The notes under the pieces were generated by a model. That model was not told where the DNA came from, did no database searches, and worked only from the letters and a program-made list of their open reading frames with translations. DNA of 64,000 nucleotides from a virus. Its lineage: Duplodnaviria > Caudoviricetes. Shown one piece after another: positions 5,540-55,366 of the stretch. The stretch's first letter is position 1, and each line of letters opens with the position of its first letter. The stretch spans positions 11,059-75,058 of IMG/VR virus record IMGVR_UViG_3300037400_001134, one strand, 5' to 3'. The position numbers and the translations under genes are program-made.

Positions 5540-5876
5540 GTGCTTGTAAAACGTGTTCACTATAATGCTATTTTATGCGATTTTTCGATTTAAGACGTTT
5601 TTGCGTTGCACCTGATAAAATGTTCGATAGTGATATTTACGTTGCTAAAATCGCTAAATTTTACGATTTAAGACTATTGACAAAAATGCATTTATATGTT
5701 ACACCACCCCCTACCCGTACATACGTTCGATTGCTACGCAAGCTCTGATGTGAGCTTGGACACACAGGTTAGGGGTTTTCATAAGACCGTCACAAGTCAT
5801 TGAGGAACTTACCATACGTGCAGGTCGTGGATTTTCTACCAGGACAGATTTTCTAAATACCGTGGGCGCTCAAAGT

Positions 5877-6305: not shown

Positions 6306-6792
6306 CTCACAGATACCAGATGATGCTTCACCGAGAACGCTGGATAAATTGCTTACAGGAACTTGCATTACACATGATGGCTCAAGAATCTCACCTAAAC
6401 AGGATAAATTCATCAACTTGTACATCAAGTATTCTGACCCGGCGCAGGCTGCAGAAGAAGCAGGGTACATGGTACGCAATACTCGTAAAGACAAGAGGGC
6501 GGCCTATGCTCGTAAGGGCAAAGAGTTGCTTAGGGATGACACTATTAGAAATGAAATTGCCGCAAGGATGGATGACATTAGGGGAGCTGAAATTGCGGAT
6601 GCTAAAGAGGTGCTCATCTATCTCACAAGAGTTATGAGAGGAGAAATTAAAGACCAGTTTGATTTAGATGCTCCGTTACAGGAAAGAACTGCGGCGGCTA
6701 AGGAGTTGAATCGCAGACTCAGAGAATTAGAGCAGGATAAAGAAATGGGTGGAACTGGTAAAGAAGTTCATCTCATACTAAGGAGAGAGTGA
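6295..6792 (+). CDS. terS: terminase small subunit
   Basis: KQDKFINLY...AQAAEEAGY HTH and IADAKEVLIYLTRVMRGE...RTAAAKEL motifs typical of SPP1-like TerS; directly upstream of TerL. Confidence 0.9.
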   Translation: MTINSQIPDDASPRTLDKLLTGTCITHDGSRISPKQDKFINLYIKYSDPAQAAEEAGYMVRNTRKDKRAAYARKGKELLRDDTIRNEIAARMDDIRGAEIADAKEVLIYLTRVMRGEIKDQFDLDAPLQERTAAAKELNRRLRELEQDKEMGGTGKEVHLILRRE

Positions 6793-6795
6793 TTT

Positions 6796-8103: not shown

Positions 8104-8172
8104 TTTATTGAAGGCATGAAGGCTTAATGATATACTACATATATAAAGGTATTATTCATAAGGAGAGTAAAA

Positions 8173-33074: not shown

Positions 33075-33659
33075 ATGTATTATGTGTATATGCACAAGGC
33101 GCCAAATGGAAAGATTTATGTAGGTCAGTCAAGACATCCAGTATCAAGATGGGGTGATGGAGGCGGGTATTATCAAAACGAAGAATTTACAAGAGATATA
33201 GAAATTTATGGATGGAACGCCATCGAACATTATATATTGAAAGCCTGTCAGACTTTAGAAGAGGCACTACTTTATGAGGCGTTGTTTATTGTACACTTCG
33301 ATAGTGAAGAAAACGGTTATAACTTCACACAATATAAGAAAAATGTTATAGAGGGTGATAGCAATAGAAAGCCTATTAGTGATTATCAGTCGATTCTAAA
33401 TTCAAATTATTCTGATTTAGAGCTTGACCTTGAAGATTCCCAGTCAAAAAATATCTTTGTAAAGAACGGCATACCTATATCAGAGGCGAAACACTTAATA
33501 AATGAATGGATATATAGTGATAGAGACCGCAATATCTTGATAGACAGATTTTTAAATGGCATAGACCTTGCTGAGTTGGCGAATAAATATGAGATGTCTT
33601 TATCTCAGATTAAGCGAGTGATTGCGTCTGGTCAAAGTGATTTAGAGAAACATATTTGA
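33075..33659 (+). CDS. GIY-YIG endonuclease fused to a sigma-4-like HTH
   Basis: YVYMHKAPNGKIYVG...SRW...EALLYEALFI; C-terminus paralogous to the 32500 HTH. Confidence 0.8.
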   Translation: MYYVYMHKAPNGKIYVGQSRHPVSRWGDGGGYYQNEEFTRDIEIYGWNAIEHYILKACQTLEEALLYEALFIVHFDSEENGYNFTQYKKNVIEGDSNRKPISDYQSILNSNYSDLELDLEDSQSKNIFVKNGIPISEAKHLINEWIYSDRDRNILIDRFLNGIDLAELANKYEMSLSQIKRVIASGQSDLEKHI

Positions 33660-41611: not shown

Positions 41612-42963
41612 GTGCTATTTATCTACAAGTATTGACACGAATAGTTGATGGGAAAGACTATTCATTTATAGAGGACAATAACCTCACAAGTAATATGTTT
41701 GATGCATATTCAGATGTATTTGATTTTATAGTTGACCACTATAATCAATACAAAGTAATTCCAGAAGATACAACAATTCAGCAGAAGTTTCCAGATATTG
41801 AATTTGTTGAGGTGAATGAGAGTGATGAGTACCTATTAGATGCATTAAGGAGTGAAAATGTAACTAATAGATTACAAAGTATATTCAGACACGCTAATGA
41901 GATAGCCAATAAAGACGGTAGCTTTGCTACATTAGATTATTTAAAAGATGCAATTACTCATATTGAGATAGAAAATCATATAGCGTCCACAGAGATTATA
42001 AGCTCATTTAATGACAGATTACAACACTCCACAGATGTAACACTTAATCATTCTGATTGGTTTATACCTACAGGTTTTGATGAGCTTGATGGTGATATAA
42101 ATGGTTTTCAGAGAGGAGATGAGCTTGTAGTTTTATATGCTCGTACCAATCAAGGTAAATCATGGATATCTGAAAAGATAGCTACATATATGGCAGAGAT
42201 AGGATTTAGAGTAGGCTATTTCTCTCCTGAAATGGGTGAACTTGATGTTGGTTATAGATTTGATACATTACATGGTCATATCTCAAACAATGCTATGAGA
42301 TTGGGTAGAGAAGATGATGATTTCAGTCTTGAATCTTATAAAGAATACGGAGACACATTAAGTAAATTAACTGGTAAATTGTTTGTTACACGACCTAAGA
42401 CATTTAACAGAAAAGTTACAGTATCAAAGTTAAGACAGTGGATAAAGTCTGATAAATTAGATGCATTATTCATAGATGGTATTACATATCTTACTGATGA
42501 GAGATTTAAGAGAGGCGACAGTAAAACAATATCATTAACTAATATTTCAGAAGATTTGATGGAATTATCAGCAGAACTGAAACTTCCAATAATAGTTGTA
42601 GTACAGGCTAATAGAGGTGGTGTAGTTGATAAAAATTCTTTAGATACACCTGAGCTAGAAAATATCAGAGATAGTGATGGTATAGCACAAAATGCCAGTA
42701 TTGTATACGCTATTCGACAAGTGAAAACAGGTAGTGGTGATACATTTCTTATTTTCGATAATAAAAAGATGAGAGGTGGAGAAGTAGGTAAATCATATAA
42801 GTATAGATGGGATATTAACTATGGTAAGTTTGTAACTGTTGCTGATAATGAGATACAACTAAATCAAGATACAGATGAAGCTCCAGTAAGAGAAAAGAAA
42901 GAGCCTACTGTAGGTAAACGCACAAGAGCAAAACGAGAGAGTGTGGCAGAAGATGATTATTGA
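41608..42963 (+). CDS. replicative DNA helicase (DnaB family)
   Basis: YARTNQGKS, FSPEM, FIDGITYL, VQANR, IRDSDGIAQNA. Confidence 0.92.
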   Translation: MSAIYLQVLTRIVDGKDYSFIEDNNLTSNMFDAYSDVFDFIVDHYNQYKVIPEDTTIQQKFPDIEFVEVNESDEYLLDALRSENVTNRLQSIFRHANEIANKDGSFATLDYLKDAITHIEIENHIASTEIISSFNDRLQHSTDVTLNHSDWFIPTGFDELDGDINGFQRGDELVVLYARTNQGKSWISEKIATYMAEIGFRVGYFSPEMGELDVGYRFDTLHGHISNNAMRLGREDDDFSLESYKEYGDTLSKLTGKLFVTRPKTFNRKVTVSKLRQWIKSDKLDALFIDGITYLTDERFKRGDSKTISLTNISEDLMELSAELKLPIIVVVQANRGGVVDKNSLDTPELENIRDSDGIAQNASIVYAIRQVKTGSGDTFLIFDNKKMRGGEVGKSYKYRWDINYGKFVTVADNEIQLNQDTDEAPVREKKEPTVGKRTRAKRESVAEDDY

Positions 42964-43912
42964 TAATACAGAATACTTAATGGACTCAATAGATATAATC
43001 AATCTGTTAAAAGTAGATTTAGCACAACATAACATTGATTATCTGAAAGATGTGAAAGATGGTCCTAAGAATATACAGATTACTTGCCCTTATCACGCTA
43101 ATGGTCAAGAGCGTAAACCATCAGCGGGTATAAGAAAGTCAGATGGAATTACTCATTGTTTTGCTTGCGGAGCTACACATACATTACCCGAAGTAATATC
43201 ATACTGCTTCGGGTATGATGGGGGTAGTTATGGTAAAAGATGGTTAGATACTCATATACAAGATAGAATCCACACAAATGGCAGAGCTAGATATAAAGAG
43301 AGTCAGAAAGAAGTAGTAACAAATAATTTTGTTTCAGAAGAAGAGTTGGATGAATACCGATGGACACATCCTTATTGGGCAAAGAGAGGTATAGTAAATG
43401 AAAAGATTATCGAGTTGTTCGACCTCGGGTATGACAGAAAAACTCAATGTATTACCTTCCCAGTTAGAGATATGCAAGGGAACTGTGAATTTGTTGCGAA
43501 GCGTTCGGTCAATACAAAGTTCTTCAAATACCCACAAGGAGTCTCAAAGCCATTGTATGGACTCTATGAGTTATGCTCTTTGGGCTTACAAGATGAGGAA
43601 ATAATTGTATGTGAGTCAATGATAGATTGTATTCTTTTATGGCAATCTGACCACTATGCCGTAGCATTGAATGGATTAGGTAATGAACGTCAGTTTAAGC
43701 AGTTGAGAGATTTACCTTGCAAGAATCTTATATTAGCTACAGATAATGATAAAGCTGGCAGAGATGCTAGAGAAAGAATAAGAAAGAAGGTGACTAATAA
43801 ATGGATATCTGAAATAGTTTTTCCAAAAGGAATAAAAGATATAGGGGAATGCTCTAAAGAGCAGATAAATAATATTTTAGATTGGAGAGAATTTATAGTA
43901 TTTAGGGGGTAA
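42953..43912 (+). CDS. DNA primase (Zn-finger + Toprim; start revised from 42941 to 42953)
   Basis: CPYH...HCFAC; ITFPVRD; VCESMID; LATDNDKAG. Confidence 0.92.
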   Translation: MIIDNTEYLMDSIDIINLLKVDLAQHNIDYLKDVKDGPKNIQITCPYHANGQERKPSAGIRKSDGITHCFACGATHTLPEVISYCFGYDGGSYGKRWLDTHIQDRIHTNGRARYKESQKEVVTNNFVSEEELDEYRWTHPYWAKRGIVNEKIIELFDLGYDRKTQCITFPVRDMQGNCEFVAKRSVNTKFFKYPQGVSKPLYGLYELCSLGLQDEEIIVCESMIDCILLWQSDHYAVALNGLGNERQFKQLRDLPCKNLILATDNDKAGRDARERIRKKVTNKWISEIVFPKGIKDIGECSKEQINNILDWREFIVFRG

Positions 43913-43914
43913 GT

Positions 43915-44577
43915 ATGAGCAAATATTTAATTCACACCTGTGAGAAGAGGAAGTGGTATGTTGATGAATATTTAGTGCCATCCATGATTAAACAAGGTAT
44001 AGATAACACAAACATACTAATCTATAATGATGAACACAAGGAAGGCTGTTTAAAATCATTTATCTCATCATCTGAAATGATAACTACTTTAAGACAAGGG
44101 GTGTGGCATTTACAAGATGATATTATTATAAGCTCAAATTTTAAAAAGGTGACAGAAGAGTTTGATAAGGGTATAGTATGTGGCTTCTGTAGCTATTATA
44201 GTGAGGATGCTCCTATAGGAATTAGACCGATAAATGATATGTGGTATTCATTTCCGTGCATAAGGATACCGAATGTAGTTCTTAAAGGATTTGTGAAATG
44301 GATAAATTCTCAGAATACACAAAATAAATACAGGGTATATATAGAACAGAACAAGTTTGTGGATTTATTGTTTAGAGAATATGTTACTACTATATATGAA
44401 GATAAACTAATACATAATCTGTGCCCTAATATCGTAGATAATGTTGATTACTTATTAGGTGGCTCAACTATAAATTATATAAGAGACAAACAGCCTGTAT
44501 CATTATATTTTCAAGAGAAAAATCTTATAGAGGAATTAAAACATTCCTTAGAAAATACTATTTACAACAAAAAATAA
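43915..44577 (+). CDS. GT-A fold glycosyltransferase-like protein
   Basis: YLIHTC..R, HLQDD DxD-like motif, WYSFPCIRIP, PNIVDNVD. Confidence 0.6.
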   Translation: MSKYLIHTCEKRKWYVDEYLVPSMIKQGIDNTNILIYNDEHKEGCLKSFISSSEMITTLRQGVWHLQDDIIISSNFKKVTEEFDKGIVCGFCSYYSEDAPIGIRPINDMWYSFPCIRIPNVVLKGFVKWINSQNTQNKYRVYIEQNKFVDLLFREYVTTIYEDKLIHNLCPNIVDNVDYLLGGSTINYIRDKQPVSLYFQEKNLIEELKHSLENTIYNKK

Positions 44578-44650
44578 ATATGTTATAGTATGTTTGTAGT
44601 TGAGCAACACAAAACATTTTAAACGTCTAAACGACAGAAAGGTAAAAACG

Positions 44651-45370
44651 ATGGCAACAAAAGAAACAAAGAAATCAGTAAACGAAGTTGGTATTATCGG
44701 TCAGATGTACGAGGAGCGAAAGTCTAAAAAGCTCGGTGTTCTTGAAAGCAGAAATGAGAAGTTTAAAACTCTTATGATGCGAGATAATAACGGAACATCA
44801 TTCACAGTACAGTATTCCACATTCAGAAGTAATTGGAGAAAGTATCAGGGCGAAGAAGTTATTCAGACTTCCGAACAAAAAGAAGAAGTCAAGCAGGCTG
44901 CTAAAGAGGAACTCAAGGAAGCAAAGAAAGAGATGGCAAAGTCTACAGAGACTACAATTAAGTTTAGTAGACAGGAAAGAATTGATGCTATAAAAGCATT
45001 AAGGACAGTTCTTAAAGATGCTATCAAAGATGCTAAGTATCCTCTTGAGCTTGTGAATCTTGCAAAGGGTGGCACAGTAGTGAAGCTCAAAGGCAAGAGA
45101 AGAACAATGTTTGAGATATGGTTACCTCTGAGATATCCGGATGTATATTCATTCAGAATGAGAGAGGACATTGCCAAGTATGTAGATATTCCTGAAGAGA
45201 AAGAATATCTTGAAAAGGATGTAAACTGCATCAGATTTAGACCTAAGAGAGAAAGATTTGATGACGTACTTAAAGTAGTATTAACAGCGGTAGAAAAGTT
45301 TGTAGAAGATACAGACTTTTTACATAAAGACGAAGAAAACGAAAAAACGAAAGAAAAGGAGAAAAACTAA
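44651..45370 (+). CDS. hypothetical protein (start revised from 44600 to 44651)
   Basis: SD GAAAGGT; own promoter TTTACA-17-TATAGT at about 44561-44589. Confidence 0.75.
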   Translation: MATKETKKSVNEVGIIGQMYEERKSKKLGVLESRNEKFKTLMMRDNNGTSFTVQYSTFRSNWRKYQGEEVIQTSEQKEEVKQAAKEELKEAKKEMAKSTETTIKFSRQERIDAIKALRTVLKDAIKDAKYPLELVNLAKGGTVVKLKGKRRTMFEIWLPLRYPDVYSFRMREDIAKYVDIPEEKEYLEKDVNCIRFRPKRERFDDVLKVVLTAVEKFVEDTDFLHKDEENEKTKEKEKN

Positions 45371-45398
45371 TGGCAAGATTTTCGTATGAGGCAATATT

Positions 45399-46111
45399 GT
45401 GAGATACGCTGATAAGAAATATAAAGAAAAATCTTATACAGTATTATGCATAAGTGCCCAAATAATAAAATCTATGTTGGTTTAACTTGTCAATCTGTTG
45501 ATGGTAGATGGAATAGAGGTTCTGGTTATAAAACTCAAAAGCTATTTTACAGAGCCATTCAAAAATATGGGTGGGATAATATTGAACACATTATTGTGCA
45601 GGATAAATTAACATTAGATGAAGCTTGTAAAATGGAGCGCAGTTTAATAACTCAGTATCAATCAAATAATTCTAAATATGGATATAATCTTACTGATGGT
45701 GGTGAGGGAATATCGGGCTATCATCTTAATGCTGAACAATTAGAACATCATAGGCAAGTTTCTTTAGGTAGAAAACATACACAAGCCACTAAAGATAAGA
45801 TTTCAAAATTAAATAAAGGCAGAAAATTAAATCTTACTGATGAACAAAGAAAAGCTTGTGCCGAAAGAGCTAGGAAATTGCCACATTATAAAAAGACTGA
45901 TGAGCAAAGACAACAGATGTCAGAGGCATATGAAAAGCGTAGAGATAGACCTGGTCATACTAAACCACATTCAGAAGAGGCTAAACGAAAAATAAGCGAA
46001 GCAATGAAGAAAAGACATCCTATTTCAGAAGAAACGAGACGAAGATTGAGTGAGGCTGCAAAGCGACAGTGGGAACGACAAAAACAAAATAAAAATAAAG
46101 GAGATATATAA
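45399..46111 (+). mobile_element. free-standing GIY-YIG/NUMOD3 homing endonuclease gene, 1-nt frameshift near the 5' end
   Basis: HKCPNNKIYVG...RWNRG...ACKMERSLI plus H-S/T-x-E-x-K-x-K-I-S repeats. The upstream frame (GTG 45399: VRYADKKYKEKSYTV) joins after a single-base loss at about 45444. Confidence 0.8.
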
Positions 46112-46112
46112 T

Positions 46113-46802
46113 ATGCGATTTGCGTATGAAGATGCAGACAAATTTGGGGGCGGTAGTGGAAACAGAATCAATTACCTCTCATTAAAAAATGATGGAGACA
46201 AAGCATTTGTGCATATTTTAGGAAATGATATGAATGATTTTCCTGGATATGCAGTACATAGAGTACCTATCGGAGATGGTCATAGATATGTGAACTGTTT
46301 GAGAGAAGCTGGTGCACCAATCACAGACTGTCCATTCTGTGCTGAAGGTAAGCATAATCCTGAAGTTAGCAGAGTTTATGCTAAACTCTTCTTACCTGTA
46401 TATGATTGTGATACAGATGAAGTAAAGATTTGGGAAAGAGGAAAGACATTCTTTAGAGACCTCGCAAGTTATTGTTCTCATAACCCTAATGTATCAGAAG
46501 TAGTTACAGAGATTGAACGTAGAGGTAAAGCAGGTGACACATCTACAACATATGGCCTCTATGCTACAAAAGAAGAGGATAACTTCAATATCGAGAATGT
46601 TAAGGAAGATATTCCAAATATTCTTGGTGATGTTGTTCTTGATAAGTCAGTAGAAGATATGGAATATTACCTTAGAAGAGGTGATTTCCCTAAAGATGAC
46701 TCTAACAATGATGGAGGTGTAACAAGAAGAGGCTCATCTGATAGAGATGATAGACGTACTCCTTCAAGAAGAGAAAGAAGAAGTGCGGAAGACGATTATT
46801 AA
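46113..46802 (+). CDS. ssb: single-stranded DNA-binding protein (start revised from 46050 to 46113)
   Basis: SD AAAGGAG; YLSLKNDGD, HRVPI...YVNCL...CPFC, VKIWERG; acidic/Arg tail ending AEDDY. Confidence 0.75.
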   Translation: MRFAYEDADKFGGGSGNRINYLSLKNDGDKAFVHILGNDMNDFPGYAVHRVPIGDGHRYVNCLREAGAPITDCPFCAEGKHNPEVSRVYAKLFLPVYDCDTDEVKIWERGKTFFRDLASYCSHNPNVSEVVTEIERRGKAGDTSTTYGLYATKEEDNFNIENVKEDIPNILGDVVLDKSVEDMEYYLRRGDFPKDDSNNDGGVTRRGSSDRDDRRTPSRRERRSAEDDY

Positions 46803-47027
46803 GTTTCCCCCCTTAATATTACCTTATAGTATTATTTTTCTATGATATAATTAACGCTATGGAAAAACTTATCTGTATCAATTTCCTATTACATATCAGA
46901 TAGGAATGTAACTGTAAATTATTCTGTTACAAAGACAACTCCCGATACAGATTTTGTATCAAAGTTTATAGTCGGTATACTGAGTGCCAGACAAAGGTTT
47001 ATAAGATACAAGTAAAAGGAGAATATA

Positions 47028-49325
47028 ATGCCGTTATTTGATATATCTGAGACAAGCTCTAAAGCTAAAGATGTGGAGCTATTAAAGAAATCAAAGACAA
47101 GGGCGAAAGCAATTACCACTACTAAATCTAGTAGTGGTAATCTTGTCAATAAGATAAAATCCATTGTCGCAATGGTAGAAACACATCTCGGTAAATATAG
47201 AGATGAGACATTACTGATACAAGATGAGGAGACATTACATAGCTATATAGATAAATGTATAGAAAATGGCATATATGCAATAGATACTGAAACAACAGGA
47301 TTAGACCCACTACTTGATATGTTAGTAGGTGTTGGTATATATACCCCTGGTGAGAAAACTACATATATACCTATAAATCATTTATCTTATATCACAGGTC
47401 AGAAAGTAAAGAATCAGTTGCCTGCAGAAATAGTTGGTAAAGAGCTTGCAAGACTTGATGGTATAGACAGTGATATGTTTAATGCTACATTCGATATCAG
47501 AGTGTTAAAGCATGGTACTGGCACAAGATTAAAATGTACATGGGATTCATATTTAGCTTCAAGATGTTTAAATGAGAATGAGCCTAATAAAGGTCTTAAA
47601 AAACTTCATCTGAAATATGTATTAAGGGGTGAAGAGGATGCTTTTAAGTTTGATGAGTTGTTTAAAGGCATAAACTTTGCATATATACCTATAAACACAG
47701 CCGCATTATATGCCGCTCATGACCCTAAGATTACATATGAATATGCAGATTATCAGCGAGAGGTATTCAGAACAAGGGAGAATTTGAAAGATGTGTATTG
47801 GGTATTCAAGAATATAGAAATGCCTTGTGTTGATGCAGTAGTAGATTTGGAAGATACCGGTGTAGCTTTTGATATCGAGTATAATGAGGAACTTAAAAGA
47901 AAATATCATGCGATACTTGATGAGAAAGAAGCAAACTTCCATAAGCTCTGTGAGATGTACAAAGATGAAATTGATAATTATAGTGGTACAGTAAAACTAG
48001 ATACCCCTATAAATATTCAATCAGTACCTCAGTTACAAGCTCTACTATATGATATAGCAAAGATAGAACCAGTTATAGATAAAAAGACAAAGAAACCAAC
48101 AAGAAGCACATCAGAAGAGACTCTACAGAAACTAAAGAATCCTTTAGCAGATGCAATACTGGAATATCGTTCATTCTCAACATTAGTAAGTACATTTATA
48201 GATAAACTTCCAGAGTGTATAAACCCTAATGATGGTCGAATACATTGTAAGTTTAATCAGTATGGTGCAGATACAGGACGATTTAGTTCACAAGACCCAA
48301 ACTTGCAGAACATTCCATCACACAATAAAGATATCAGAAAAATGTTCAAAGCTACAGATGGCTACATAATGATGAGTGCTGACTACTCACAGCAGGAAAT
48401 CAAAGGTATGGCACAGATGTGCGGAGATGAGGGTATGATAGAAGCATTTAGACAAGGTAAAGACTTCTATGCTGAGATTGCATCAGTAGCATTTGGATAT
48501 CCTTATGAAGAGTGTCGAGAGTTCAGACCTGATGGTACAACTAATCCTGATGGTAAAGCAAGACGAGCCCAAGCAAAGAGTATTCTGTTAGGTATAAACT
48601 ATGGTAGAGGTGCTGCCAGTATTGCTGAACAGATAGGTTGTACTAAAGCAGAAGCGGAGAAGATAAAAGATGATGTATTTACAGGATTCCCTGCTATAGC
48701 AGAGTTTGAACGTCAGAGTATAGAGATGGCTGAAACTGTAGGATATGTCACAACTCTTTGGGGTAGAAAAAGAAGATTGCCGTCAATGATGTTACCTGAC
48801 TATGAGTTTCAATGGGAAGAAAGTAAATTACCTTTTAATGATGACCCTCTTGATTTTGATGATGAGGAAGAAGCTCCAGAGATTCCTGATAGTGTTATCA
48901 ATAAGTATCTCAGAAAGCTATCTAAATGTTGGGGTAGTCAAAAACGAAAGGTGTTTGAAGAAGCTAGAGCCGATGGCATAATGATTATAGACCATACGAA
49001 AGATAAAGACTACACAAAGATAGTTAATGCTAGAGTGCAAGGTACCGCAGCGGATATGTCAAAGTTGGCTATGATAGCTCTCAATAAAAATGAGAGATTG
49101 AAAGAGCTAGGATTTAGAATGTTGATACCTATACATGATGAGATACTAGCAGAATGTCCTGAAGAAAATGCGGCAGAAGTCATACCACTATTTGCAAAAA
49201 TAATGTCAGAAGCCCCAGGTGAAAGATTTGTAGTGCCTATTTCCTGCGACGTTGAAGTGACACACCGTTGGTATGGTAAGAAGTATCATCTTGTAGATGG
49301 AAAGTTAGTTGAGGAGACAGAATGA
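47028..49325 (+). CDS. DNA polymerase, family A (3'-5' exo + pol)
   Basis: AIDTETTG, FNATFD, YAAHD; TGRFSS..PNLQNIP, SADYSQQEI, RAQAKSILLGINYG, IHDEI. Confidence 0.95.
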   Translation: MPLFDISETSSKAKDVELLKKSKTRAKAITTTKSSSGNLVNKIKSIVAMVETHLGKYRDETLLIQDEETLHSYIDKCIENGIYAIDTETTGLDPLLDMLVGVGIYTPGEKTTYIPINHLSYITGQKVKNQLPAEIVGKELARLDGIDSDMFNATFDIRVLKHGTGTRLKCTWDSYLASRCLNENEPNKGLKKLHLKYVLRGEEDAFKFDELFKGINFAYIPINTAALYAAHDPKITYEYADYQREVFRTRENLKDVYWVFKNIEMPCVDAVVDLEDTGVAFDIEYNEELKRKYHAILDEKEANFHKLCEMYKDEIDNYSGTVKLDTPINIQSVPQLQALLYDIAKIEPVIDKKTKKPTRSTSEETLQKLKNPLADAILEYRSFSTLVSTFIDKLPECINPNDGRIHCKFNQYGADTGRFSSQDPNLQNIPSHNKDIRKMFKATDGYIMMSADYSQQEIKGMAQMCGDEGMIEAFRQGKDFYAEIASVAFGYPYEECREFRPDGTTNPDGKARRAQAKSILLGINYGRGAASIAEQIGCTKAEAEKIKDDVFTGFPAIAEFERQSIEMAETVGYVTTLWGRKRRLPSMMLPDYEFQWEESKLPFNDDPLDFDDEEEAPEIPDSVINKYLRKLSKCWGSQKRKVFEEARADGIMIIDHTKDKDYTKIVNARVQGTAADMSKLAMIALNKNERLKELGFRMLIPIHDEILAECPEENAAEVIPLFAKIMSEAPGERFVVPISCDVEVTHRWYGKKYHLVDGKLVEETE

Positions 49326-50179
49326 ATTTTGCAGTATTTATATTATCACATAAAAGAGTCGAAAGAGTTGAGACATTAGATACTTTACAGAAAGCAGGAT
49401 ATACAGGTAAAATATATATTGTAGTTGATGATGAAGACCCTCAGCTTGATATGTATAAGTCAAGATTCAATGATAGGGAAGATGTTGAGTTATTAGTATT
49501 TGGCAAACAACCTATGATTGATATTGCTGACACTGTATATCCTGAAAAGAAAAGAAGTTCAGCATTATATGCCCGTAACTTTATAGAGAGCATGGCAAAT
49601 ATATTTAGATTAGATATATTTGCCATGATGGATGATGATATAACATCATTAAGATTTAGATGGGTAGAAAATAATTCTGTAAAGTCACAAGTTGTAAATT
49701 CTACAATGGATGAAGTGTTTGAATATTATGGGCAGTATATGTTAGATGCAGATATTGCCACAACATCTTTTCCATTCAGTATGTTCTATATTTCAGGTAC
49801 AAGTGGATTAGATAAAAAGATTACAGAAAGCAGACATACATACCAGATACACATAAGAAATACAAATTTTCCTGTTGATTGGGTGTCTGTAATAAATCAA
49901 GATACAATTACACAGTTACAGACAATGCAAGTAGGATATATATGGTGGTCAATTCCTTATTTAGTGTTTGACGCAGAACCAATGAATAGTAAACCAGGTG
50001 GATTAAAGTCTGTATATGATAGTATAAAAGATTTTGATATGGCATTTCTCGCAGTAATTTCTAATCCTAGTTGTTGTAAAGTAGCTTATTCTAGTGGTCC
50101 TAGAAGTACAATGCAGATAAAAGAAGATAAGCACACAAGTTATCCTATGATTGTTAGTGAAAGGTATATGAAACTATGA
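49322..50179 (+). CDS. glycosyltransferase, TET-associated (TAGT/GREB1-like) type, copy A
   Basis: ILSHKR, GYTGKIYIVVDDED, YARN, MMDDD, KPGGLKSVY. Confidence 0.75.
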   Translation: MNFAVFILSHKRVERVETLDTLQKAGYTGKIYIVVDDEDPQLDMYKSRFNDREDVELLVFGKQPMIDIADTVYPEKKRSSALYARNFIESMANIFRLDIFAMMDDDITSLRFRWVENNSVKSQVVNSTMDEVFEYYGQYMLDADIATTSFPFSMFYISGTSGLDKKITESRHTYQIHIRNTNFPVDWVSVINQDTITQLQTMQVGYIWWSIPYLVFDAEPMNSKPGGLKSVYDSIKDFDMAFLAVISNPSCCKVAYSSGPRSTMQIKEDKHTSYPMIVSERYMKL

Positions 50180-51015
50180 TTGTGTATATAAAAACACATG
50201 GCAGACCAGGTAATCAGTTGACTTACAATACTCTACGAGAAGCTGGCTACACAGGAGATATAGTCTTAGTCATAGATAATGAAGATGAGTGTGGTGCAGG
50301 ATATTTAGAGTTCGTGAAACATGATGACAGACTATGGTTGCACATCTTTGATAAACAAAAATTGGTAGATGAAATAGATAGTGGCACAAATATTCCTAAA
50401 AGAGATGTGAATTTATATGCTTGGGTTGCTTGTGAGAGATTTGCAAAACAAGATGGTAATGATTTCTTCATAATGGCAGATGACGATATAACAAGATTTA
50501 GGTACAGATATCTTGAAGATAATCATTTAAAGTCAACACCTATAACACAGAATCTTGACAGAGTATTTGAGCATATTCAGAATTATATGGAATGCTCCAA
50601 TATAGCCGCTGCCAGCACAGGAATACCTCAAATGTACTTCTCTAAAGAGTTAGACGAAAATCTGTGGAAATACAGAGTGGTGTATCAATTCGTATTCAGA
50701 AATCCTAAATTTGATATGAATTGGGTGTCTGAATATGAAGAGGATATAATAACATCCATCAATATGTCAAAAGAGGGTAAGTATGTCACTTGTCTACCAA
50801 TGATTCAGCATGATGCAATAGCTTTAGGTAAAGCATCTGGTGGTATGAAGGATATGTATGATGAGAATAATACTAGATTTAGATTAGCTGAATATGGTCA
50901 CATATTTAATCCTTCATGCGAGATAATGAATTTCTATAAAGGTAAGTGGATAACGAATATCAAGAGAAATAATGCTTTTCAGAAATTAGTGAGTTCCAGT
51001 CGTAAAAAGAAATAA
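50176..51015 (+). CDS. glycosyltransferase, TAGT-like, copy B
   Basis: KTHGR, GYTGDIVLVIDNED, MADDD, EYEED, SGGMKDMY. Confidence 0.75.
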   Translation: MIVYIKTHGRPGNQLTYNTLREAGYTGDIVLVIDNEDECGAGYLEFVKHDDRLWLHIFDKQKLVDEIDSGTNIPKRDVNLYAWVACERFAKQDGNDFFIMADDDITRFRYRYLEDNHLKSTPITQNLDRVFEHIQNYMECSNIAAASTGIPQMYFSKELDENLWKYRVVYQFVFRNPKFDMNWVSEYEEDIITSINMSKEGKYVTCLPMIQHDAIALGKASGGMKDMYDENNTRFRLAEYGHIFNPSCEIMNFYKGKWITNIKRNNAFQKLVSSSRKKK

Positions 51016-51068
51016 GATGTTATATAATATTTAAGTACGAGAGATTTAAAAAACGAGAGGAGAAACAC

Positions 51069-51563
51069 ATGAAACAATTATTTGCTGATGACAGCGCAAA
51101 GAAAAATCCTATGGGGGATGACACAAAGTATTCTAGGGCAATACGAGTTCCACAGTATGAACCTAAGAGTGAGAAACCCAGTCTTGAATCAGTTTATGAC
51201 CTTACGAAGTATAGTAAGCTCATGGCTAGAATCAACAAATCTAATGTATCAGAAGAAGAAAAGAAATTCTTAAAATTCGCCGCTACAAGACATATTGTAT
51301 TCACTTATAGCAAGATAGCAGATTATTATGCCCATGCAAGTAAGGAGATGCAGGAGCTGATGGAAGAGTCAGCATTAGTAATTATTGATATTGATGATGC
51401 AATAGCTAATGGTTATGTAGCTCTTTCAGAGAAGATGCAACAACTTATTGATGAGGAAAAAGCTAGAGATGCAAAGGCAAAAGAGGCAAGTAATATTCTG
51501 AAAGCTCAAAGAGAATTAGCAGAGAAGAAGGCTAAGGAGAAGAAGGATGAGCAGAAGTCTTGA
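51069..51563 (+). CDS. conserved helical protein associated with TAGT genes
   Basis: KYSRAIRVPQYEP...FLKFAATRHIVFTYSKIADYYAHAS.EMQ.LMEESALVIID.D.AI..GYV; recognised as a recurrent neighbour of such GTs; function unknown. Confidence 0.6.
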   Translation: MKQLFADDSAKKNPMGDDTKYSRAIRVPQYEPKSEKPSLESVYDLTKYSKLMARINKSNVSEEEKKFLKFAATRHIVFTYSKIADYYAHASKEMQELMEESALVIIDIDDAIANGYVALSEKMQQLIDEEKARDAKAKEASNILKAQRELAEKKAKEKKDEQKS

Positions 51564-52419
51564 TGATTTTGCAGTATTAGTTTTAACTCATGGCAGAGCA
51601 GAGAATGTTCCTACATATGGCACATTAAGAAAATATGGATATACTGGCAGAATAATAATGGTAGTAGATGATGAAGACCCAGATTTAGAAAATTATATGT
51701 CAGTATATGGTAAAGATAATGTGGCAGTATTCTCTAAAGATGAAGTTGTAAAGAAATTTGATACAATGGATATTCCTAAGCACCGTAAATGTATCGTGTA
51801 TGCTAGAAATGCGAGCTATGATATTGCAGAACGACTTGGTCTAAAGTATTTTGCACAGTATGATGATGACTATGTGACAAATCCTTATAGATGGCAAGAG
51901 GGAGAAACTTTATACAGAAGTACACTAGCAAATCTTGATGAAGTATTTAAGGCACACATAGATTTTCTTGAAACTAACCCTAACATATATACTGTAGCGT
52001 TTGGTCAAGCAGGAGATTTTATAGGCGGGGTAGGTAGTAATCTTGTGAAACATAAGTGGTTGAGAAAGGCCATGAATAGCTTTATATGCAAGACTGATAG
52101 GAGAATACAGTTTAATGGCACTATAAATGAAGATGTGAATGCCTATGTATTAAATGGTTCAAGAGGACAGATATACTTAACATTTGATTTTATGATGATT
52201 GACCAAGCTGAAACACAGACTCAAAAAGGTGGTATGGCAGACTTATATTTAGGTGTAGGTACATATCAAAAATCATTTTATACAGTCTTATGTAGTCCAT
52301 CATGCGTTAAAGTAGGTATGATGGGAGATAGACATTATCGTATGCATCACAACATTGATTGGGATAATGCAGTTCCAAAAATAATATCAGATAGATATAA
52401 ATTAAAGGAGGAAAAGTGA
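51547..52419 (+). CDS. glycosyltransferase, TAGT-like, copy C
   Basis: VLTHGR, GYTGRIIMVVDDED, YARN, QYDDD, FNGTINEDVNAY, TQKGGMADLY. Confidence 0.8.
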   Translation: MSRSLDDFAVLVLTHGRAENVPTYGTLRKYGYTGRIIMVVDDEDPDLENYMSVYGKDNVAVFSKDEVVKKFDTMDIPKHRKCIVYARNASYDIAERLGLKYFAQYDDDYVTNPYRWQEGETLYRSTLANLDEVFKAHIDFLETNPNIYTVAFGQAGDFIGGVGSNLVKHKWLRKAMNSFICKTDRRIQFNGTINEDVNAYVLNGSRGQIYLTFDFMMIDQAETQTQKGGMADLYLGVGTYQKSFYTVLCSPSCVKVGMMGDRHYRMHHNIDWDNAVPKIISDRYKLKEEK

Positions 52420-53528
52420 TGAAATTCACAACAAACACAGCCCAGTTTCAGAACATGGTAGCAAAAGCAGTAAAGGGAGCAGGTATGAGTAATGATTTAT
52501 TTATCACTCAGCTTATGTCAATTTCATTAAGTGATAACAGATTGACATTGACAACTACAGATAACAATAACTATCTGTATGTAAGACAGGAGAAAGTGGC
52601 AGGAGATGACTTCAATGTAGTAGTTCCTGTAGATAAGTTCTCTAAACTCATTTCTAAACTTACTTGCCCAGAGGTGACATTAGAAGTGCAGTCAAAAGAT
52701 GGTGAGTTAGATAAGCTCGTAATCAAAGGTAATGGTAGATATGTGATTGAATTACCTTATGATGAGAGCGGTGAGCTTATTGATTATCCTGACCCATTAT
52801 CAGATACAGATGGAGATTTCTGGAGTAGTGGAGAAGTTCAGTTGACTACTATCAGACACATACTCAATACAGCAAAGGCAGCACTTCTTGTAGGAAGAGA
52901 TGATATGTGCTATTCAGATTATTACTGTGGAGAAAGAGTAGTTGCTACAGATACTTATAAGATTTGTGGTATTGATGTTAAGCTCTTTGATGAGCCTAAG
53001 TTAATCTCACCTCAGCTTATGGATTTACTTGATGTAATGTCACAGGAGAACATTGATGTGAGATATAAAGATGATGTAGTAATCTTTGAAACATCAGATG
53101 TAACAGTATATGGTCTTGTAGATGAGGGTGTAGAAGATTATAAGATTGATGCAATCAGTGGACTTCTTGATGAACAGTTCCCTAGCTCATGTAAGATTGA
53201 AAAGCAGCCATTGATGCAAATGTTAGACCGTCTTTCTCTTTTCGTTGACACATTCGATAAGAATAGTGTATATCTCACATTCACTAAAGAGGGCATGATG
53301 GTATCATCAAAGCAGGATAGTGGTGAAGAAGTTATTTCATATAAGGAGAGTAATAACTTTAGTGATTATACCTGCTGTCTTGATATTGACCTCTTTAAGA
53401 CTCAGGTTAAAGCATATCAGGATGATATTATTGAGATTCTTTATGGTAAAGAGAATAGCATTAAGCTAGCCCTCAATAATACGAAGCAGATTGTGGCTCT
53501 TGCAGATGATGATAGGGATGCTGAGTGA
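52416..53528 (+). CDS. dnaN: DNA polymerase sliding clamp (beta-clamp-like)
   Basis: 370 aa, three-domain periodicity; LTLTTTD, VVATDTYKI, LMQMLDRLSLF. Confidence 0.8.
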   Translation: MMKFTTNTAQFQNMVAKAVKGAGMSNDLFITQLMSISLSDNRLTLTTTDNNNYLYVRQEKVAGDDFNVVVPVDKFSKLISKLTCPEVTLEVQSKDGELDKLVIKGNGRYVIELPYDESGELIDYPDPLSDTDGDFWSSGEVQLTTIRHILNTAKAALLVGRDDMCYSDYYCGERVVATDTYKICGIDVKLFDEPKLISPQLMDLLDVMSQENIDVRYKDDVVIFETSDVTVYGLVDEGVEDYKIDAISGLLDEQFPSSCKIEKQPLMQMLDRLSLFVDTFDKNSVYLTFTKEGMMVSSKQDSGEEVISYKESNNFSDYTCCLDIDLFKTQVKAYQDDIIEILYGKENSIKLALNNTKQIVALADDDRDAE

Positions 53529-53539
53529 TACTTAAACAT

Positions 53540-53571
53540 AAGAGGGAGAGTTAATAGCTCTCCCTTATTTT
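53540..53571 (+). terminator. intrinsic terminator
   Basis: GGGAGAG-TTAATAG-CTCTCCC then TTATTTT. Confidence 0.7.
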
Positions 53572-53587
53572 GACTAAAGGGGAATAT

Positions 53588-54391
53588 ATGAGCAGAACAA
53601 GTTTAAAGAACGTTAGTAGATTGATACAGTTGGCAGAAGATGAAGAGAAGCAGTCAGTTGGTCAATCATTTTTAGAAGATTTTAAAAGGTCAATAGAGAT
53701 TGAATCAGAGCAGAATAGTGGATTGCCATCTCCAACATTTAAACCGTCGTCATTAAATTGTAAAAGAGGATGCTATTATCAGATAATGCAAGTACAACCT
53801 GATGAGGGACATTCATCTTTCAATATGATTGGTATATGCAATAGTGGTAGTGATATCCATGTAAGAGTTCAGACCGCAGTAATGAAGATGAAAGAGATGG
53901 GTATGGACTGTGAATGGATAGATGTAGAAACCTATATCAAAGAGAATAACCTGGATTATCTTATTGTGAGGGAGAAAAAGGGTACAGAGACAAAACTTTA
54001 TGATACCAGATATGGCACATATATTAGCTTCATGTGTGATGGCATTATAAAATATAAGGGCAAATATTATATTTTAGAAATTAAGACAGAGAGTAGTAAT
54101 AAGTGGTATGGCAGAACAGATGTGGACCCTAAACATCATCATCAAGCTATATCATATTCTAATAGCTTTAAAATAGATACAGTATTGTTCTTATACGTAG
54201 AGAGAGACTTATTAAACTGTAAATGCTATGAATTTAATGTTACAAACGAAATGAGGCACAATCTAGTATCATTCTTAAATGAAGTGCAGGGTTATGTAGA
54301 GAGAAAGATAGCTCCACCTAAGCAAGATGATTTGCCAAAGAATATTTGTAGATACTGCCAATATCAAACACAGTGTAAAAAGGACTGTTGA
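53588..54391 (+). CDS. Cas4-like PD-(D/E)XK exonuclease (start revised from 53570 to 53588)
   Basis: KPSSLNCKR, GSDIH, CDGII...LEIKT, HQAISY, CRYCQYQTQC Fe-S cysteines. Confidence 0.85.
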   Translation: MSRTSLKNVSRLIQLAEDEEKQSVGQSFLEDFKRSIEIESEQNSGLPSPTFKPSSLNCKRGCYYQIMQVQPDEGHSSFNMIGICNSGSDIHVRVQTAVMKMKEMGMDCEWIDVETYIKENNLDYLIVREKKGTETKLYDTRYGTYISFMCDGIIKYKGKYYILEIKTESSNKWYGRTDVDPKHHHQAISYSNSFKIDTVLFLYVERDLLNCKCYEFNVTNEMRHNLVSFLNEVQGYVERKIAPPKQDDLPKNICRYCQYQTQCKKDC

Positions 54392-54454
54392 GTTACTTTT
54401 TAGCATTGACTTAATTAGTATGGTGAACTATAATGTGTGAAAGGAGATACTTAT

Positions 54455-55366
54455 ATGAATAACACCACATTATATGTTCACATTACTCCATCTAATAAAT
54501 ATTATATAGGCATAACTCAAAAACCTATAAAAGAAAGATGGGGTGCTAATGGAAAAGGATACTATGGTCAACAATTATTTTATCGTGCAATTAAAAAATA
54601 TGGATGGAATAATATTCAACATATAATACTAATGGAAAATTTAGATAGGGAAGAGGCGTGTGAGTGCGAAAAATATCTTATAGCTAAATATCATACTACG
54701 GATCCGAGATACGGATATAATATATCTTATGGTGGTGATATTGTGCAAACAGGTTTAGTTAGGAATGAAGCTCAAAGAAAACATATTAGTGATGCACATA
54801 AAGGTTTACCACTTACACAGCCTCAATTAGATAATTTAAAATTGATACATCAAAATAATACAGGAAAACATTTATCAGATGAACATAAGCAAAAGTTAAG
54901 TAAGGCACTTACAGGTAAAAAGAGGAGTGAGGAATCAAGAAAGCATATTAGTGAGGCTAAAAAAGGACATATTCCTTGGAATAAAGGTAAACATATGTCC
55001 GAAGAGACTAAAGAAAAGTTAAGGCAAGCTAATCTAGGCAACAGATTATCCGAAGAAACAAAGCGGAAGATTAGTGAGTCAAATAAGGGTAAAAGGTCAG
55101 GTATAAAACTATCAGAAGATACTCGAAACAAGATAAGTGCTTCCAATAAAGGTAAACACGCCTACAATAAAGGAAAGGCTATGTCCGAAGAAACAAAGAA
55201 AAAATTATCCATAAGTATTAGAAAAAGTCTGAAAGATAAAGATTTTTCAGGAGCTAATAATGGTTTTTATGGCAAGCATCATTCACCAGAAACTATTGAG
55301 AAAATACGAAAAGCTAGTATTGAACGGGCTGCGAAAGTTAGAGAGGAGAAATCATATGGCGGTTAA
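54455..55366 (+). mobile_element. GIY-YIG/NUMOD3 homing endonuclease (start revised from 54437 to 54455)
   Basis: LYVHITPSNKYYIG...ERWG...ACECEKYLI; many NUMOD3 repeats; own promoter TTGACT-17-TATAAT at about 54405-54433. Confidence 0.88.

Follow-up and report, generated by a model that had tools for sequence, protein, structure and literature searches.

In kinetoplastids, base J is made by the thymine hydroxylases JBP1 and JBP2 together with the glucosyltransferase JGT. Phages carry post-replicative hypermodification clusters that combine C5-methyltransferases (C5-MT), 5mYOX (TET) enzymes and glycosyltransferases (GTs; Burke et al. 2021, PMC8256090; bioRxiv 10.1101/2023.12.21.572611), and all characterised DNA GTs need a hydroxyl supplied by a thymidylate synthase (TS) homologue or a 5mYOX, with unmodified bases and the backbone not known as acceptors of any DNA GT (PMC13326640). 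Sugar addition to DNA is known for members of the TAGT family, among them the T2/T6 beta-glucosyl-HMC-alpha-glucosyltransferase, which places a second glucose onto a DNA-borne sugar (PMC13390438). On dsDNA, phage 5mYOX enzymes that modify DNA have ParB-like activators: the ParB-dependent phage thymine dioxygenases comprise 5mYOX clade C1 and cognate ParBs (e.g. 5mYOX176/ParB176), and the latter have no DNA-binding domain, are needed on dsDNA and often co-occur with GTs (O'Toole et al., PNAS 2026, PMC13229309). Two-gene cassettes of a ParB-like and a TAGT gene, devoid of TET, lie upstream of terminase genes and are functionally uncharacterised; examples are ORF1-ORF2 of Lactobacillus phage c5, E. 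coli Rac-type prophages, genes 21-22 of HHTV-2, Orf1-Orf2 of Nocardia phage NTR1, and Porphyromonas phages.

Results

A TAGT array lies among replication genes

The locus was found in a window of 64,000 nucleotides from a phage genome of 75,058 bp, rated 100% complete by CheckV (Table 1). PolA, TAGT1, TAGT2, the partner P0003, TAGT3 and a beta-clamp homologue follow one another on the + strand, with start/stop overlaps at PolA/TAGT1, TAGT1/TAGT2, P0003/TAGT3 and TAGT3/clamp. The hairpin beyond the clamp gene is the sole + strand one in the scanned 42800-54500 stretch, where terminator-like sites are not above chance in number. Every gene of the arrangement is kept in a sister phage at 73-96% identity, with the GTs and adaptor 88-96% identical versus 64-78% for PolA; as more distant relatives also keep the PolA-TAGT-TAGT-partner-TAGT-clamp order, with the clamp gene in the same position, the arrangement is not due to chance. 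The closest phage PolAs are those of Clostridium phiCTP1 (45%) and Streptococcus Dp-1 (40%), and the homing endonuclease gene is an insert outside the sugar-transferase system.

Table 1. Features of the replication block and the sequence evidence for each
Feature	Position	Strand	Evidence
DnaG-type primase (block start, context)	42941..43912	+	Pfam Toprim_2 3.4e-14, Zn_ribbon_DnaG; phrog_47 3.2e-41
P0001, 220-aa GT-A-fold protein, family not in Pfam	43915..44577	+	AF2 model and Foldseek
P0002, K/E-rich, no assigned function	44600..45370	+	Conserved ORF
GIY-YIG/NUMOD3 homing endonuclease	45446..46111	+	Pfam NUMOD3 2.6e-9, GIY-YIG; phrog_314 1e-29
Single-strand DNA-binding protein (context)	46050..46802	+	phrog_14578 1.2e-33
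Family A DNA polymerase (PolA) with 3'-5' exonuclease	47028..49325	+	Pfam DNA_pol_A 1e-93
TAGT1, putative divergent secondary TAGT glycosyltransferase, 285 aa	49322..50179	+	PF20691 1.5e-22, phrog_842 7.7e-31
TAGT2, putative divergent secondary TAGT glycosyltransferase, 279 aa	50176..51015	+	PF20691 7.7e-21, phrog_842
P0003, putative adaptor, 164 aa	51069..51563	+	phrog_620 positions 148-216 of 217; c5 ORF1 similarity
TAGT3, putative primary adaptor-coupled TAGT glycosyltransferase, 290 aa	51547..52419	+	PF20691 1.9e-35, phrog_842 1.3e-57
Beta sliding clamp homologue	52416..53528	+	Pfam DNA_pol3_beta 2.5e-6
Terminator-like hairpin	53542..53566	+	11-pair stem, then T run

The original prediction, made from the window alone, had recognised three TAGT-like paralogues of about 280 aa. 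All three score far above the Pfam cut-off for TAGT (PF20691, 27.5 bits) and match phrog_842, and the motifs named at the time, (S/T)H(G/K)R, GYTG.I..V.D.ED, DDD and GG....Y, are true alignment columns. The paralogues share 27-33% pairwise identity, and each retains the residues that are invariant in the family. The AF2 model of TAGT3 (pLDDT 87.8) has a GT-A fold along its full length. Most cassette GTs (from Lactobacillus, E. coli, Salmonella, Nocardia, Vibrio and Haloarcula viruses) share 39-46% identity with TAGT3, and the Ld17 and Porphyromonas phage members share 26-32%. TAGT1 retains R12, D.ED, DDD, GG..Y and PSC, lacks the primary-clade motifs QGGDFIGG, INEDVN, TQ and RxHH, and falls on a long branch outside the primary clade. 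TAGT2 is 95% identical in the sister phage and has just 32 homologue clusters, many from contigs of about 55-77 kb; it appears confined to the present phage lineage. Judged by sequence comparison, TAGT3 is probably the ancestral primary GT and TAGT1 and TAGT2 old, divergent secondary GTs, a composition that would fit sequential or alternative sugars.

P0003 corresponds to the C-terminal half of ParB-like proteins

The conserved helical partner that had been noticed between the DNA polymerase and clamp genes is P0003, although its identity as a truncated ParB-like adaptor had been missed. Over residues 124-257 of Lactobacillus phage c5 ORF1, a protein whose N-terminus is a ParB_N domain, P0003 shows 51% identity, and no ParB_N match was found anywhere in the 75,058-bp genome. 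We thus newly recognise the partner as a ParB-like protein reduced to its C-terminal half, the ParB N-terminal domain being absent; the longer form stands ahead of TAGT genes in phages of very diverse kinds. This recognition links the locus to modules in which DNA modification is coupled to ParB.

Adaptor and transferase are paired well beyond this genome. The adaptor domain adjoins the GT in 79 of 80 metagenomic TAGT3 loci, nearly always directly before it, and the cassettes in these 80 loci always sit with replication or packaging genes, with no third conserved gene beside the pair. A radical SAM gene lies directly 3' of the GT in seven of the loci. Several independent ParB_N-adaptor-TAGT fusion proteins were found, one cluster having 19 members, along with one adaptor-methyltransferase fusion. 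In about two thirds of cassettes the partner is fused to a ParB N-domain. Its form changes with genomic context: the short adaptor without this domain occurs in each of the 14 replisome-embedded cassettes, versus 32 ParB-fused and 2 short adaptors among terminase-linked cassettes, a contrast that one evolutionary event within a single phage family might explain.

P0001 is an unrelated GT-A-fold protein

The fourth GT proposed after the primase gene also held up at the level of fold. P0001 has no match in Pfam, PHROG or NCBIfam and no profile relation to TAGT, and its AF2 model (pLDDT 94.3) has a GT-A/nucleotide-diphospho-sugar-transferase fold. Its Foldseek matches are sugar nucleotidyltransferases as well as GT-A glycosyltransferases, with 9crz (1.9e-5), SpsA and B4GalT among them; 'glycosyltransferase' models from phages match at TM 0.66-0.74. 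Invariant positions, with 386 homologues found, are H7, R12, D39 and the motif W64-H65-x-Q67-D68-D69. The neighbouring P0002 has no family match (Pfam, PHROG and NCBIfam included) and is conserved in relatives G001 (82%), G034 (52%) and G006 (36%); translation probably begins at the ATG at 44651, and the Atlas copy begins at residue 18. P0002 was rejected as a 2OG/Fe oxygenase because it has only 2 His.

No known priming enzyme was matched

Base-hydroxylating, methylating and 7-deazaguanine enzymes had been reported absent from the window, and this absence extends to the complete genome, in the rest of which no methylase, TET or TS gene was matched. Searches of the whole 75,058 bp gave no match to Tet_JBP (six-frame, without a positive control), thymidylate synthase, ThyX, C5-MTase, N6/N4-MTase, TGT/DpdA or radical SAM, and per-ORF hmmscans found none of these modification-enzyme families either. 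Tet_JBP and thymidylate synthase were likewise unmatched in the sister phage and three relatives, and in all 34 viral genomes with the cassette, of which 23 are 90% or more complete (again by six-frame Tet_JBP search without a positive control). Complete phages, 30.5 and 35.8 kb in size, are among the cassette genomes lacking TET and TS. Family-conserved unknown ORFs proved to be a Cas4-like nuclease, a resolvase and His-poor small proteins; as they have neither the His content nor the HxD motif expected of a 2OG oxygenase, all were discarded as oxygenase candidates. The genome yielded no genes for dNTP modification, which argues against a pre-replicative route.

Restriction sites are avoided and CC/GG is not

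Across the genome CC/GG has a symmetrised odds ratio of 0.98, a normal frequency, and the proposal that the genome is patterned around a CC/GG-context modification is not supported. GGCC (26 observed vs 80 expected, 0.33), CCGG (21 vs 46, 0.46) and above all GATC (5 sites vs 289 expected, the strongest depletion) are counter-selected, and CGCG is depleted too. Depletion of GGCC and CCGG suggests that these contexts are still exposed to restriction, the opposite of protection. The CC-free island itself is real: it spans 1,087 bp without CC despite 176 C, the next-longest gap being 386 bp. The relatives G001 and G034 conserve it, with no Pro codons in the ORFs embedded there. It is, however, absent from G006, G004 and G032, all carriers of TAGT cassettes and two of them with secondary TAGTs. 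The island adjoins terS and might just as well be a protein-binding stretch or one free of NGG/CCN PAMs.

Discussion

Our preferred reading, held tentatively and with somewhat less than even confidence, is that the locus encodes an adaptor-coupled array for partial DNA glycosylation without priming of the TET/JBP or thymidylate synthase type. The ancestral two-gene unit would be P0003 and TAGT3; in most phages it stands before the terminase genes with an adaptor that also bears a ParB N-domain, and in the present lineage this domain would have been lost and the unit transcribed together with PolA and the sliding clamp. P0003 would bring TAGT3 to phage DNA during or just after replication, possibly recruited via the replisome or clamp in place of a ParB clamp, and TAGT3 would transfer the first sugar directly onto a group pre-existing in DNA. 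TAGT1 and TAGT2, and perhaps the unrelated P0001, might extend or vary the glycan, the T2/T6 family member that adds a second glucose serving as the model. Partial modification, or modification of selected sequences, is more probable than a blanket replacement, and we count the depletion of GATC, GGCC, CCGG and CGCG in favour of this. Of the hypermodification by several GTs that was first proposed, the DNA-glycosylating family, the dedicated partner and the lack of a recognisable hydroxylase stand, while the CC/GG context is not supported. That DNA is the acceptor is our inference. Counting against our preferred reading are the requirement of known DNA GTs for a modified acceptor, the glycosylation of a protein reported for GREB1, a eukaryotic relative with a glycosyltransferase domain (PMC7968844), the phage 5mYOX that escape PF12851 (see below), the lack of a positive control in the six-frame Tet_JBP searches, and the chance that the contrast between replisome- and terminase-linked cassettes arose only once.

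The GTs could instead act on 5-hydroxymethyluracil, 5-hydroxymethylcytosine or 5-hydroxycytosine, with the hydroxyl supplied by an unrecognised phage or host enzyme. All characterised TAGT-type or phage DNA GTs use such acceptors (PMC13390438, PMC13326640, PMC8256090), the radical SAM genes directly after some cassette GTs suggest that alternative priming enzymes may exist, and a minority of phage 5mYOX escapes PF12851, an annotation absent from 5-17% of contigs retrieved with phage-specific profiles (PMC13229309). The Tet_JBP genome searches, moreover, had no positive control. We nevertheless consider this unlikely, given the failure to match Tet_JBP or TS in this genome, four relatives and 34 cassette genomes, or ThyX and radical SAM here, the lack of a third conserved neighbour and of oxygenase features in the conserved ORFs, and the need for a host hydroxylase common to Firmicutes, Proteobacteria, Bacteroidota, Actinobacteria and haloarchaea.

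The acceptor might also be a cell-envelope polymer or a protein, whether of the replisome, of the virion or ParB-like, with P0003 a protein-protein adaptor. TarP and TarS, prophage enzymes that add sugars to wall teichoic acid, are among the fold matches, although these are generic GT-A matches at TM of about 0.45-0.5; P0001 has its top viral fold matches in actinophage 'glycosyltransferases', and other phages have homologues of it among genes for structure or lysis. The strong avoidance of restriction sites indicates that phage DNA is not broadly protected, and GREB1 offers a protein-directed precedent. Set against this, the frequent fusion of the partner to a ParB N-domain, and once to methyltransferase domains, and the constant placement of the cassette among replication or packaging genes make such an acceptor comparably doubtful. 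A CC/GG-context base modification around which the island, a CC-rich block and TACCNT promoters are patterned is highly improbable in view of the counts above, even though dinucleotide specificity is possible in phage 5mYOX and C5-MT enzymes (PMC8256090).

With the complete genome lacking known acceptor-making enzymes, the sugar acceptor of our proposed DNA-glycosylating array becomes a testable question. Like the C5-MT/5mYOX and GT clusters, whose listed neighbours are ParB, DNA polymerase, clamp and terminase genes, the array has TAGT-like GT-A enzymes, at times several per cluster, but those clusters make the acceptor with a methylase and dioxygenase, or a dioxygenase alone, which are absent here. 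The T2/T6 enzyme shares its Pfam and PHROG family with the present TAGTs, whereas T-even phages use pre-replicative hmC from a dCMP hydroxymethylase and a GT-B for the first sugar, neither of which occurs here. The base J pathway would be similar in being a post-replicative, partial and site-selective DNA glycosylation by a TAGT-related GT-A enzyme, and differs in requiring thymine hydroxylation by JBP, in having no ParB-like adaptor and in adding a single sugar.

The 5mYOX/ParB pairs offer a possible parallel in which a dedicated ParB-like protein travels with a post-replicative DNA-modifying enzyme; in the present genome, however, there is no 5mYOX, the partnered enzyme is the GT itself, and P0003 is without the nucleotide-binding domain that those ParBs require (PMC13229309). 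The TET-less cassettes share the gene order, the overlapping genes and the lack of TET or TS with our locus. In contrast to them, the partner here is without a ParB N-domain, the unit lies between PolA and the clamp rather than before the terminase, and it is joined by two extra divergent TAGT paralogues and a nearby unrelated GT-A gene.

Organization of the genome and of the glycosyltransferase block

The genome is a single viral contig of 75,058 bp, rated 100% complete by CheckV, of which the window represents bases 11059-75058. It has a G+C content of 36%, with every long ORF on a single strand, and its host is probably a Firmicute, as the endolysin contains CHAP and CW_7 domains, a SleB-type hydrolase is encoded, and PolA has its nearest phage counterparts in Clostridium phage phiCTP1 and Streptococcus phage Dp-1. 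The glycosyltransferase (GT) genes lie within a replication block (Table) in which start and stop codons overlap at four junctions. On this strand the scanned stretch holds a single terminator-like hairpin, located 3' of the clamp gene, and the promoter and terminator counts of the block were not above chance. A megablast comparison of the region with GenBank phages gave no match, an NCBIfam search with all six proteins examined returned no family, and an Atlas search with the K/E-rich protein P0002 yielded scores of at most 0.76, with matches to unnamed clusters only. Every gene of the block is kept in a sister phage (IMG/VR UViG_3300021400_000049; 74,461 bp, with terminal repeats), and the array order PolA-TAGT-TAGT-adaptor-TAGT-clamp is retained down to 42-51% TAGT2 identity.

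Table. Features of the replication block and the terminase genes, in window positions
Feature	Position	Remark
terS and terL	6295-8103	
Primase	42941-43912	
P0001	43915-44577	220-aa GT-A-fold protein
P0002	44600-45370	
GIY-YIG homing endonuclease	45446-46111	between P0002 and SSB
SSB		between homing endonuclease and PolA
PolA	47028-49325	
TAGT1	49322-50179	secondary paralogue
TAGT2	50176-51015	secondary paralogue
P0003	51069-51563	164-aa adaptor
TAGT3	51547-52419	primary paralogue
Beta clamp	52416-53528	

The replication module carries several GIY-YIG/NUMOD3 homing-endonuclease genes, including, besides that in the Table, 54437-55366, 33075-33659 and, in the sister phage, L006 7628-8347; one such gene splits the sister PolA into two ORFs. 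RecA is 639 aa long in two relatives (L114 14445-16364; L115 14869-16788) versus 350 aa in this genome, making an intein or insert probable in both. The 658-aa product of a clamp-loader tau-like gene beyond the window (L001 461-2437) matches DNA_pol3_delta2 in two separate stretches and may likewise contain an insert.

Three TAGT paralogues and a separate GT-A-fold protein

The original prediction had described three TAGT-like paralogues with shared motifs, and these proved real: TAGT1, TAGT2 and TAGT3 score 81.0, 75.4 and 123.1 bits, respectively, against Pfam PF20691 (TET-associated glycosyltransferase, TAGT; gathering cut-off 27.5), all three match phrog_842, and the motifs are true invariant alignment columns, DDD being invariant across the paralogues as well as in four outgroup cassette GTs. 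Identity among the paralogues is 27-33%. TAGT3 is the conventional member, sharing 39-46% identity with most TAGT genes recovered from Lactobacillus, E. coli, Salmonella, Nocardia, Vibrio, and Haloarcula phages and retaining the clade motifs QGGDFIGG, RKAMN, INEDVN, TQ, GTYxKSFY, and RxHH. In TAGT1 and TAGT2 the catalytic-type invariants R, D.ED, DDD, GG..Y, and PSC persist while the remaining clade motifs are replaced, and a quick tree, to be read with long-branch caution, places both outside the primary clade on long branches, a position shared by the 'second' TAGTs from other arrays. TAGT3 was the paralogue chosen for structure prediction, and its AF2 model (pLDDT 87.8) matches the GT-A enzymes GpgS, K4CP, SpsA, TarP, and GnT-I across approximately 290 columns. 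Because the alignment covers the full chain, no additional domain is hidden in the C-terminal part of TAGT3, where PSC...RxHH is conserved. The largest array seen, on a 115-kb viral contig (L051 7788-13212), is one in which five TAGT paralogues follow a single short adaptor.

P0001 had been proposed as a fourth GT, which is supported at the level of its fold. Its AF2 model is confident (pLDDT 94.3) and adopts a Rossmann-like GT-A/nucleotide-diphospho-sugar transferase fold, with Foldseek E-values of 1.9e-5 to 1e-3 against GT-A enzymes in the PDB and 9e-10 against phage GT models. P0001 has no Pfam match and belongs to no sequence family, and searches of PDB sequences with the P0001 and TAGT3 profiles returned nothing meaningful. 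A profile-profile comparison of the families (probability 0.8%) ruled out that P0001 is a fourth TAGT. Its HLQDD motif (D68 and D69) is invariant, and cytidylyltransferases match the fold about as well as GTs do, so that P0001 may be a further GT, as its fold suggests, or may have a nucleotidyltransferase role.

Between the primase gene and the P0001 homologue, two extra GT2-family genes that are absent here occur in the sister phage (L006 2143-3416) and in L115 (1053-2332), bringing the GT-like genes of each to six. In the relative G006 the P0001 slot is occupied by a DUF4417 gene; DUF4417 is frequently fused to ParB in phages (PMC12704722). The interval between terL and portal holds a GT2 gene and a P0001 homologue in the relative G004 and in an unrelated phage, and appears as a variable accessory slot for GT2, P0001 homologues, and DUF4417 (L007 4738-9149; G004 ~38.5-39.8 kb; G006 7670-8194).

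The TAGT3 partner corresponds to the C-terminal half of ParB-like proteins

The gene overlapping the start of TAGT3 by 17 nt, P0003, had been described as a conserved helical partner. Its conservation beside TAGT genes was confirmed, and it can now be identified as the C-terminal half of a ParB-like partner: P0003 shares 51% identity with Lactobacillus phage c5 ORF1 (residues 124-257), a protein with ParB_N at its N-terminus, matches just the last third of the 'ParB-like partition protein' PHROG, and aligns only with the C-terminal half of ParB-like partners. ParB_N itself had no match anywhere in the genome. In GenBank phages a ParB-like gene nearly always precedes the TAGT3 homologue, usually just before the terminase genes.

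The adaptor-TAGT cassette is present in more than 530 IMG/VR contigs, and also in phages infecting Firmicutes, Proteobacteria, Bacteroidota, Actinobacteria, and haloarchaea; 80 of the IMG/VR loci were fetched for a survey. A P0003-like domain was found in 79 of the 80, its gene immediately preceding the GT gene with only about five exceptions; in 54 loci the protein also has an N-terminal ParB-like part, in 22 the domain stands alone as a protein of 120-150 aa, as here, and in one it is fused to the GT. Proteins that join ParB_N, adaptor, and TAGT form several clusters in the protein database, one of which has 19 members; the adaptor is also fused once to a methyltransferase and in no case to Tet_JBP. 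No third conserved gene accompanies the pair in the 80 loci, the commonest neighbour being the large terminase gene in about half of them.

Fourteen of the 80 loci have PolA or the clamp within 7 kb, and all 14 encode the short adaptor; terminase-linked loci, by comparison, encode 32 ParB-fused partners versus 2 short adaptors. The unit described here belongs to the former group, lying between PolA and clamp and not directly upstream of the terminase genes. Multi-TAGT arrays are also commoner with the short adaptor (8/22) than with the ParB-fused form (3/54). As judged from gene content, this distribution shows that the ParB N-domain would be dispensable where the cassette rides with the replisome. 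The replisome loci all belong to one phage family, and the contrast with terminase-linked loci may therefore reflect a single evolutionary event. In stand-alone adaptors the N-terminus is marked by a conserved x-L-F (MKQLF in this phage; 51069-51090), and ParB-fused partners have the same LF in their linker; since a beta-clamp gene adjoins, this motif could be a putative clamp-binding peptide.

No priming enzyme was detected in the complete genome

All characterised phage DNA glycosylation begins at a hydroxyl provided by a thymidylate synthase (TS) homologue or a TET/JBP dioxygenase (PMC13326640). The original prediction saw no base-hydroxylating enzyme in the window, and this holds across the complete genome, where methylase, TET, and thymidylate-synthase-like genes were sought and none was found. 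Six-frame searches detected no TS, ThyX, C5-MTase, N6/N4-MTase, TGT/DpdA, ParB_N, or radical SAM gene, and no Tet_JBP match, the last search being one without a positive control as the control genomes also gave no match. Analysis of approximately 70 individual ORFs by hmmscan likewise revealed no such enzyme, and ORF scans of the genome contained no deaminase, kinase, or dUTPase. The sister phage had no Tet_JBP, TS, or ThyX match, and radical SAM was not found in it or in G004, G006, or the relative G034. Among 34 cassette-bearing genomes, of which 23 are 90% complete or more, none matched TS, in a search with working controls, or Tet_JBP, in one without. Published mining work notes most GT contigs to be without 5mYOX (a TET/JBP-type dioxygenase) or ThyS (bioRxiv 10.1101/2023.12.21.572611). 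Taken together, the obligate adaptor pairing, the lack of a third conserved gene, and the absence of Tet_JBP and TS matches from the 34 genomes identify the adaptor and TAGT as an autonomous unit.

A cryptic 2OG/Fe oxygenase was also sought by His content and HxD/E motifs in all ORFs of at least 100 aa, and the two candidates inspected in full, at 4858-5439 and 513-1025, show no such features. The family-conserved ORFs without assigned function encode a Cas4-like exonuclease (273 aa), a resolvase, and small His-poor proteins, none resembling a 2OG/Fe oxygenase. In 7 of the 80 cassette loci (L017, L033, L035, L036, L057, L067, and L084) a radical SAM gene lies directly 3' of the TAGT gene, and its product is possibly an oxygen-independent priming enzyme.

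Restriction-site avoidance and the CC-free island

GATC occurs only 5 times in 75 kb versus approximately 289 expected (window sites 4568, 20923, and 54701), an avoidance shared with the relatives G034 (1 versus 255 expected), G006, and the sister phage, which points to hosts with GATC-specific restriction. Also depleted are CGCG (2 versus 24 expected), GGCC (26 versus 80), CCGG (21 versus 46), and CATG, and the CpG odds ratio is 0.45. DNA on which such site selection acts remains vulnerable to type II restriction, so any DNA modification would be partial or context-limited and not T4-like.

The proposal of a genome patterned around a CC/GG-context modification was not supported, as the CC/GG odds ratio is 0.98, GGCC and CCGG are depleted, and the CC-free island is absent from the cassette-bearing relatives G006, G004, and G032. 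The island itself is real: it spans 1.09 kb upstream of terS (4524-5611), is CC-free and GG-poor, and its DNA-level property is kept in the sister phage (G001 51111-52156) and in G034 (71152-72213). Each island carries an ORF of approximately 190 aa with a K/A/T/Q-rich tail; Pro codons are missing from those of the sister phage and G034, the latter island (~1.06 kb, zero GG, one CC) having a 186-aa ORF that also lacks Gly. We found no support for a tie between the island and the GTs, and it is possibly a PAM-free (NGG/CCN) or protein-binding stretch beside terS.

Possible acceptors and a model for TAGT function

As the cassette is widespread without TS and TET/JBP, a new priming enzyme awaits discovery or, failing that, a new acceptor chemistry. 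The most far-reaching form of the latter, which we consider more likely wrong than right, is one in which the primary TAGT and its adaptor would glycosylate a group native to ordinary DNA (a nitrogen or oxygen of a canonical base, or the backbone) and would need no hydroxymethyl or hydroxy precursor; here this would take place at the replication fork, where the short adaptor would tether the enzyme to the sliding clamp, replacing a ParB clamp, and the secondary TAGTs would build an oligosaccharide. In the reading that we place first, though at less than even odds, P0003 would by analogy be the GT-docking half of a ParB-like adaptor, as suggested by its obligate pairing with the GT, the fusion proteins, and a genomic setting that always involves DNA handling. 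ParB-like proteins without a DNA-binding domain serve as activators of phage thymine dioxygenases, with an effect specific to dsDNA (PMC13229309), and Aravind and co-workers, as cited in PMC8256090, proposed that ParB steers modification enzymes to DNA at packaging. Here the adaptor may instead be tethered through the replisome, a suggestion made because loss of the ParB N-domain is confined to cassettes transcribed together with polymerase and clamp. TAGT3 would install the first sugar on phage DNA, and TAGT1, TAGT2, and possibly P0001 could be extending or alternative transferases, after the T2/T6 TAGT family member that adds a second glucose (PMC13390438). As TS-type and dNTP-pool genes were not found, action on the DNA polymer is more likely than action on dNTPs.

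Slightly below direct transfer to ordinary DNA we rank a hidden hydroxylase supplying the acceptor. PF12851 is reported to miss part of phage 5mYOX (PMC13229309), but complete small cassette genomes are without any candidate priming gene, and it is for this reason that direct transfer is placed ahead. An acceptor other than DNA is a serious rival to both. If true, direct glycosylation of ordinary DNA would be a new DNA-modification chemistry in hundreds of bacterial and archaeal phages, and the loss of the ParB N-domain in replisome cassettes offers a concrete handle on the role of the adaptor. The answer on the acceptor bears on restriction and CRISPR evasion, on the targets of type IV restriction, and on DNA-labelling tools.

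Relation to known systems

One mark of the PF20691 family is genomic association with a TET/JBP dioxygenase or a TS-type hydroxymethylase that makes the acceptor, whereas neither this genome nor the sister phage yielded such a gene (the Tet_JBP search being without a positive control). T-even pre-replicative hypermodification relies on a dCMP/dUMP hydroxymethylase or 5-hydroxy-dCMP synthase and dNTP-pool enzymes, which were not found here. ParB-dependent 5mYOX systems (PMC13229309) differ in having the 5mYOX/TET-JBP dioxygenase, absent here from the genome search and hmmscans, and a partner with both a ParB nucleotide-binding N-domain and a C-terminal domain, of which P0003 represents the C-terminal part only. 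With the TET-less ParB-like/TAGT cassette the present system shares a partner-domain gene immediately before the GT, but the usual place of that cassette is directly upstream of the terminase, in contrast to the PolA-clamp interval here. The system is thus of an already known kind, that of phage TAGT DNA glycosyltransferases with ParB-like partners. From sequence comparison, its apparently new features are an adaptor without the ParB N-domain, embedding in a replisome operon, an old architecture of one primary and two secondary TAGTs, and a separate, variable GT-A and GT2 island. With three TAGTs, one more GT-A protein and, in the sister phage, two further GT2 genes, it is the most elaborate form of the cassette seen.
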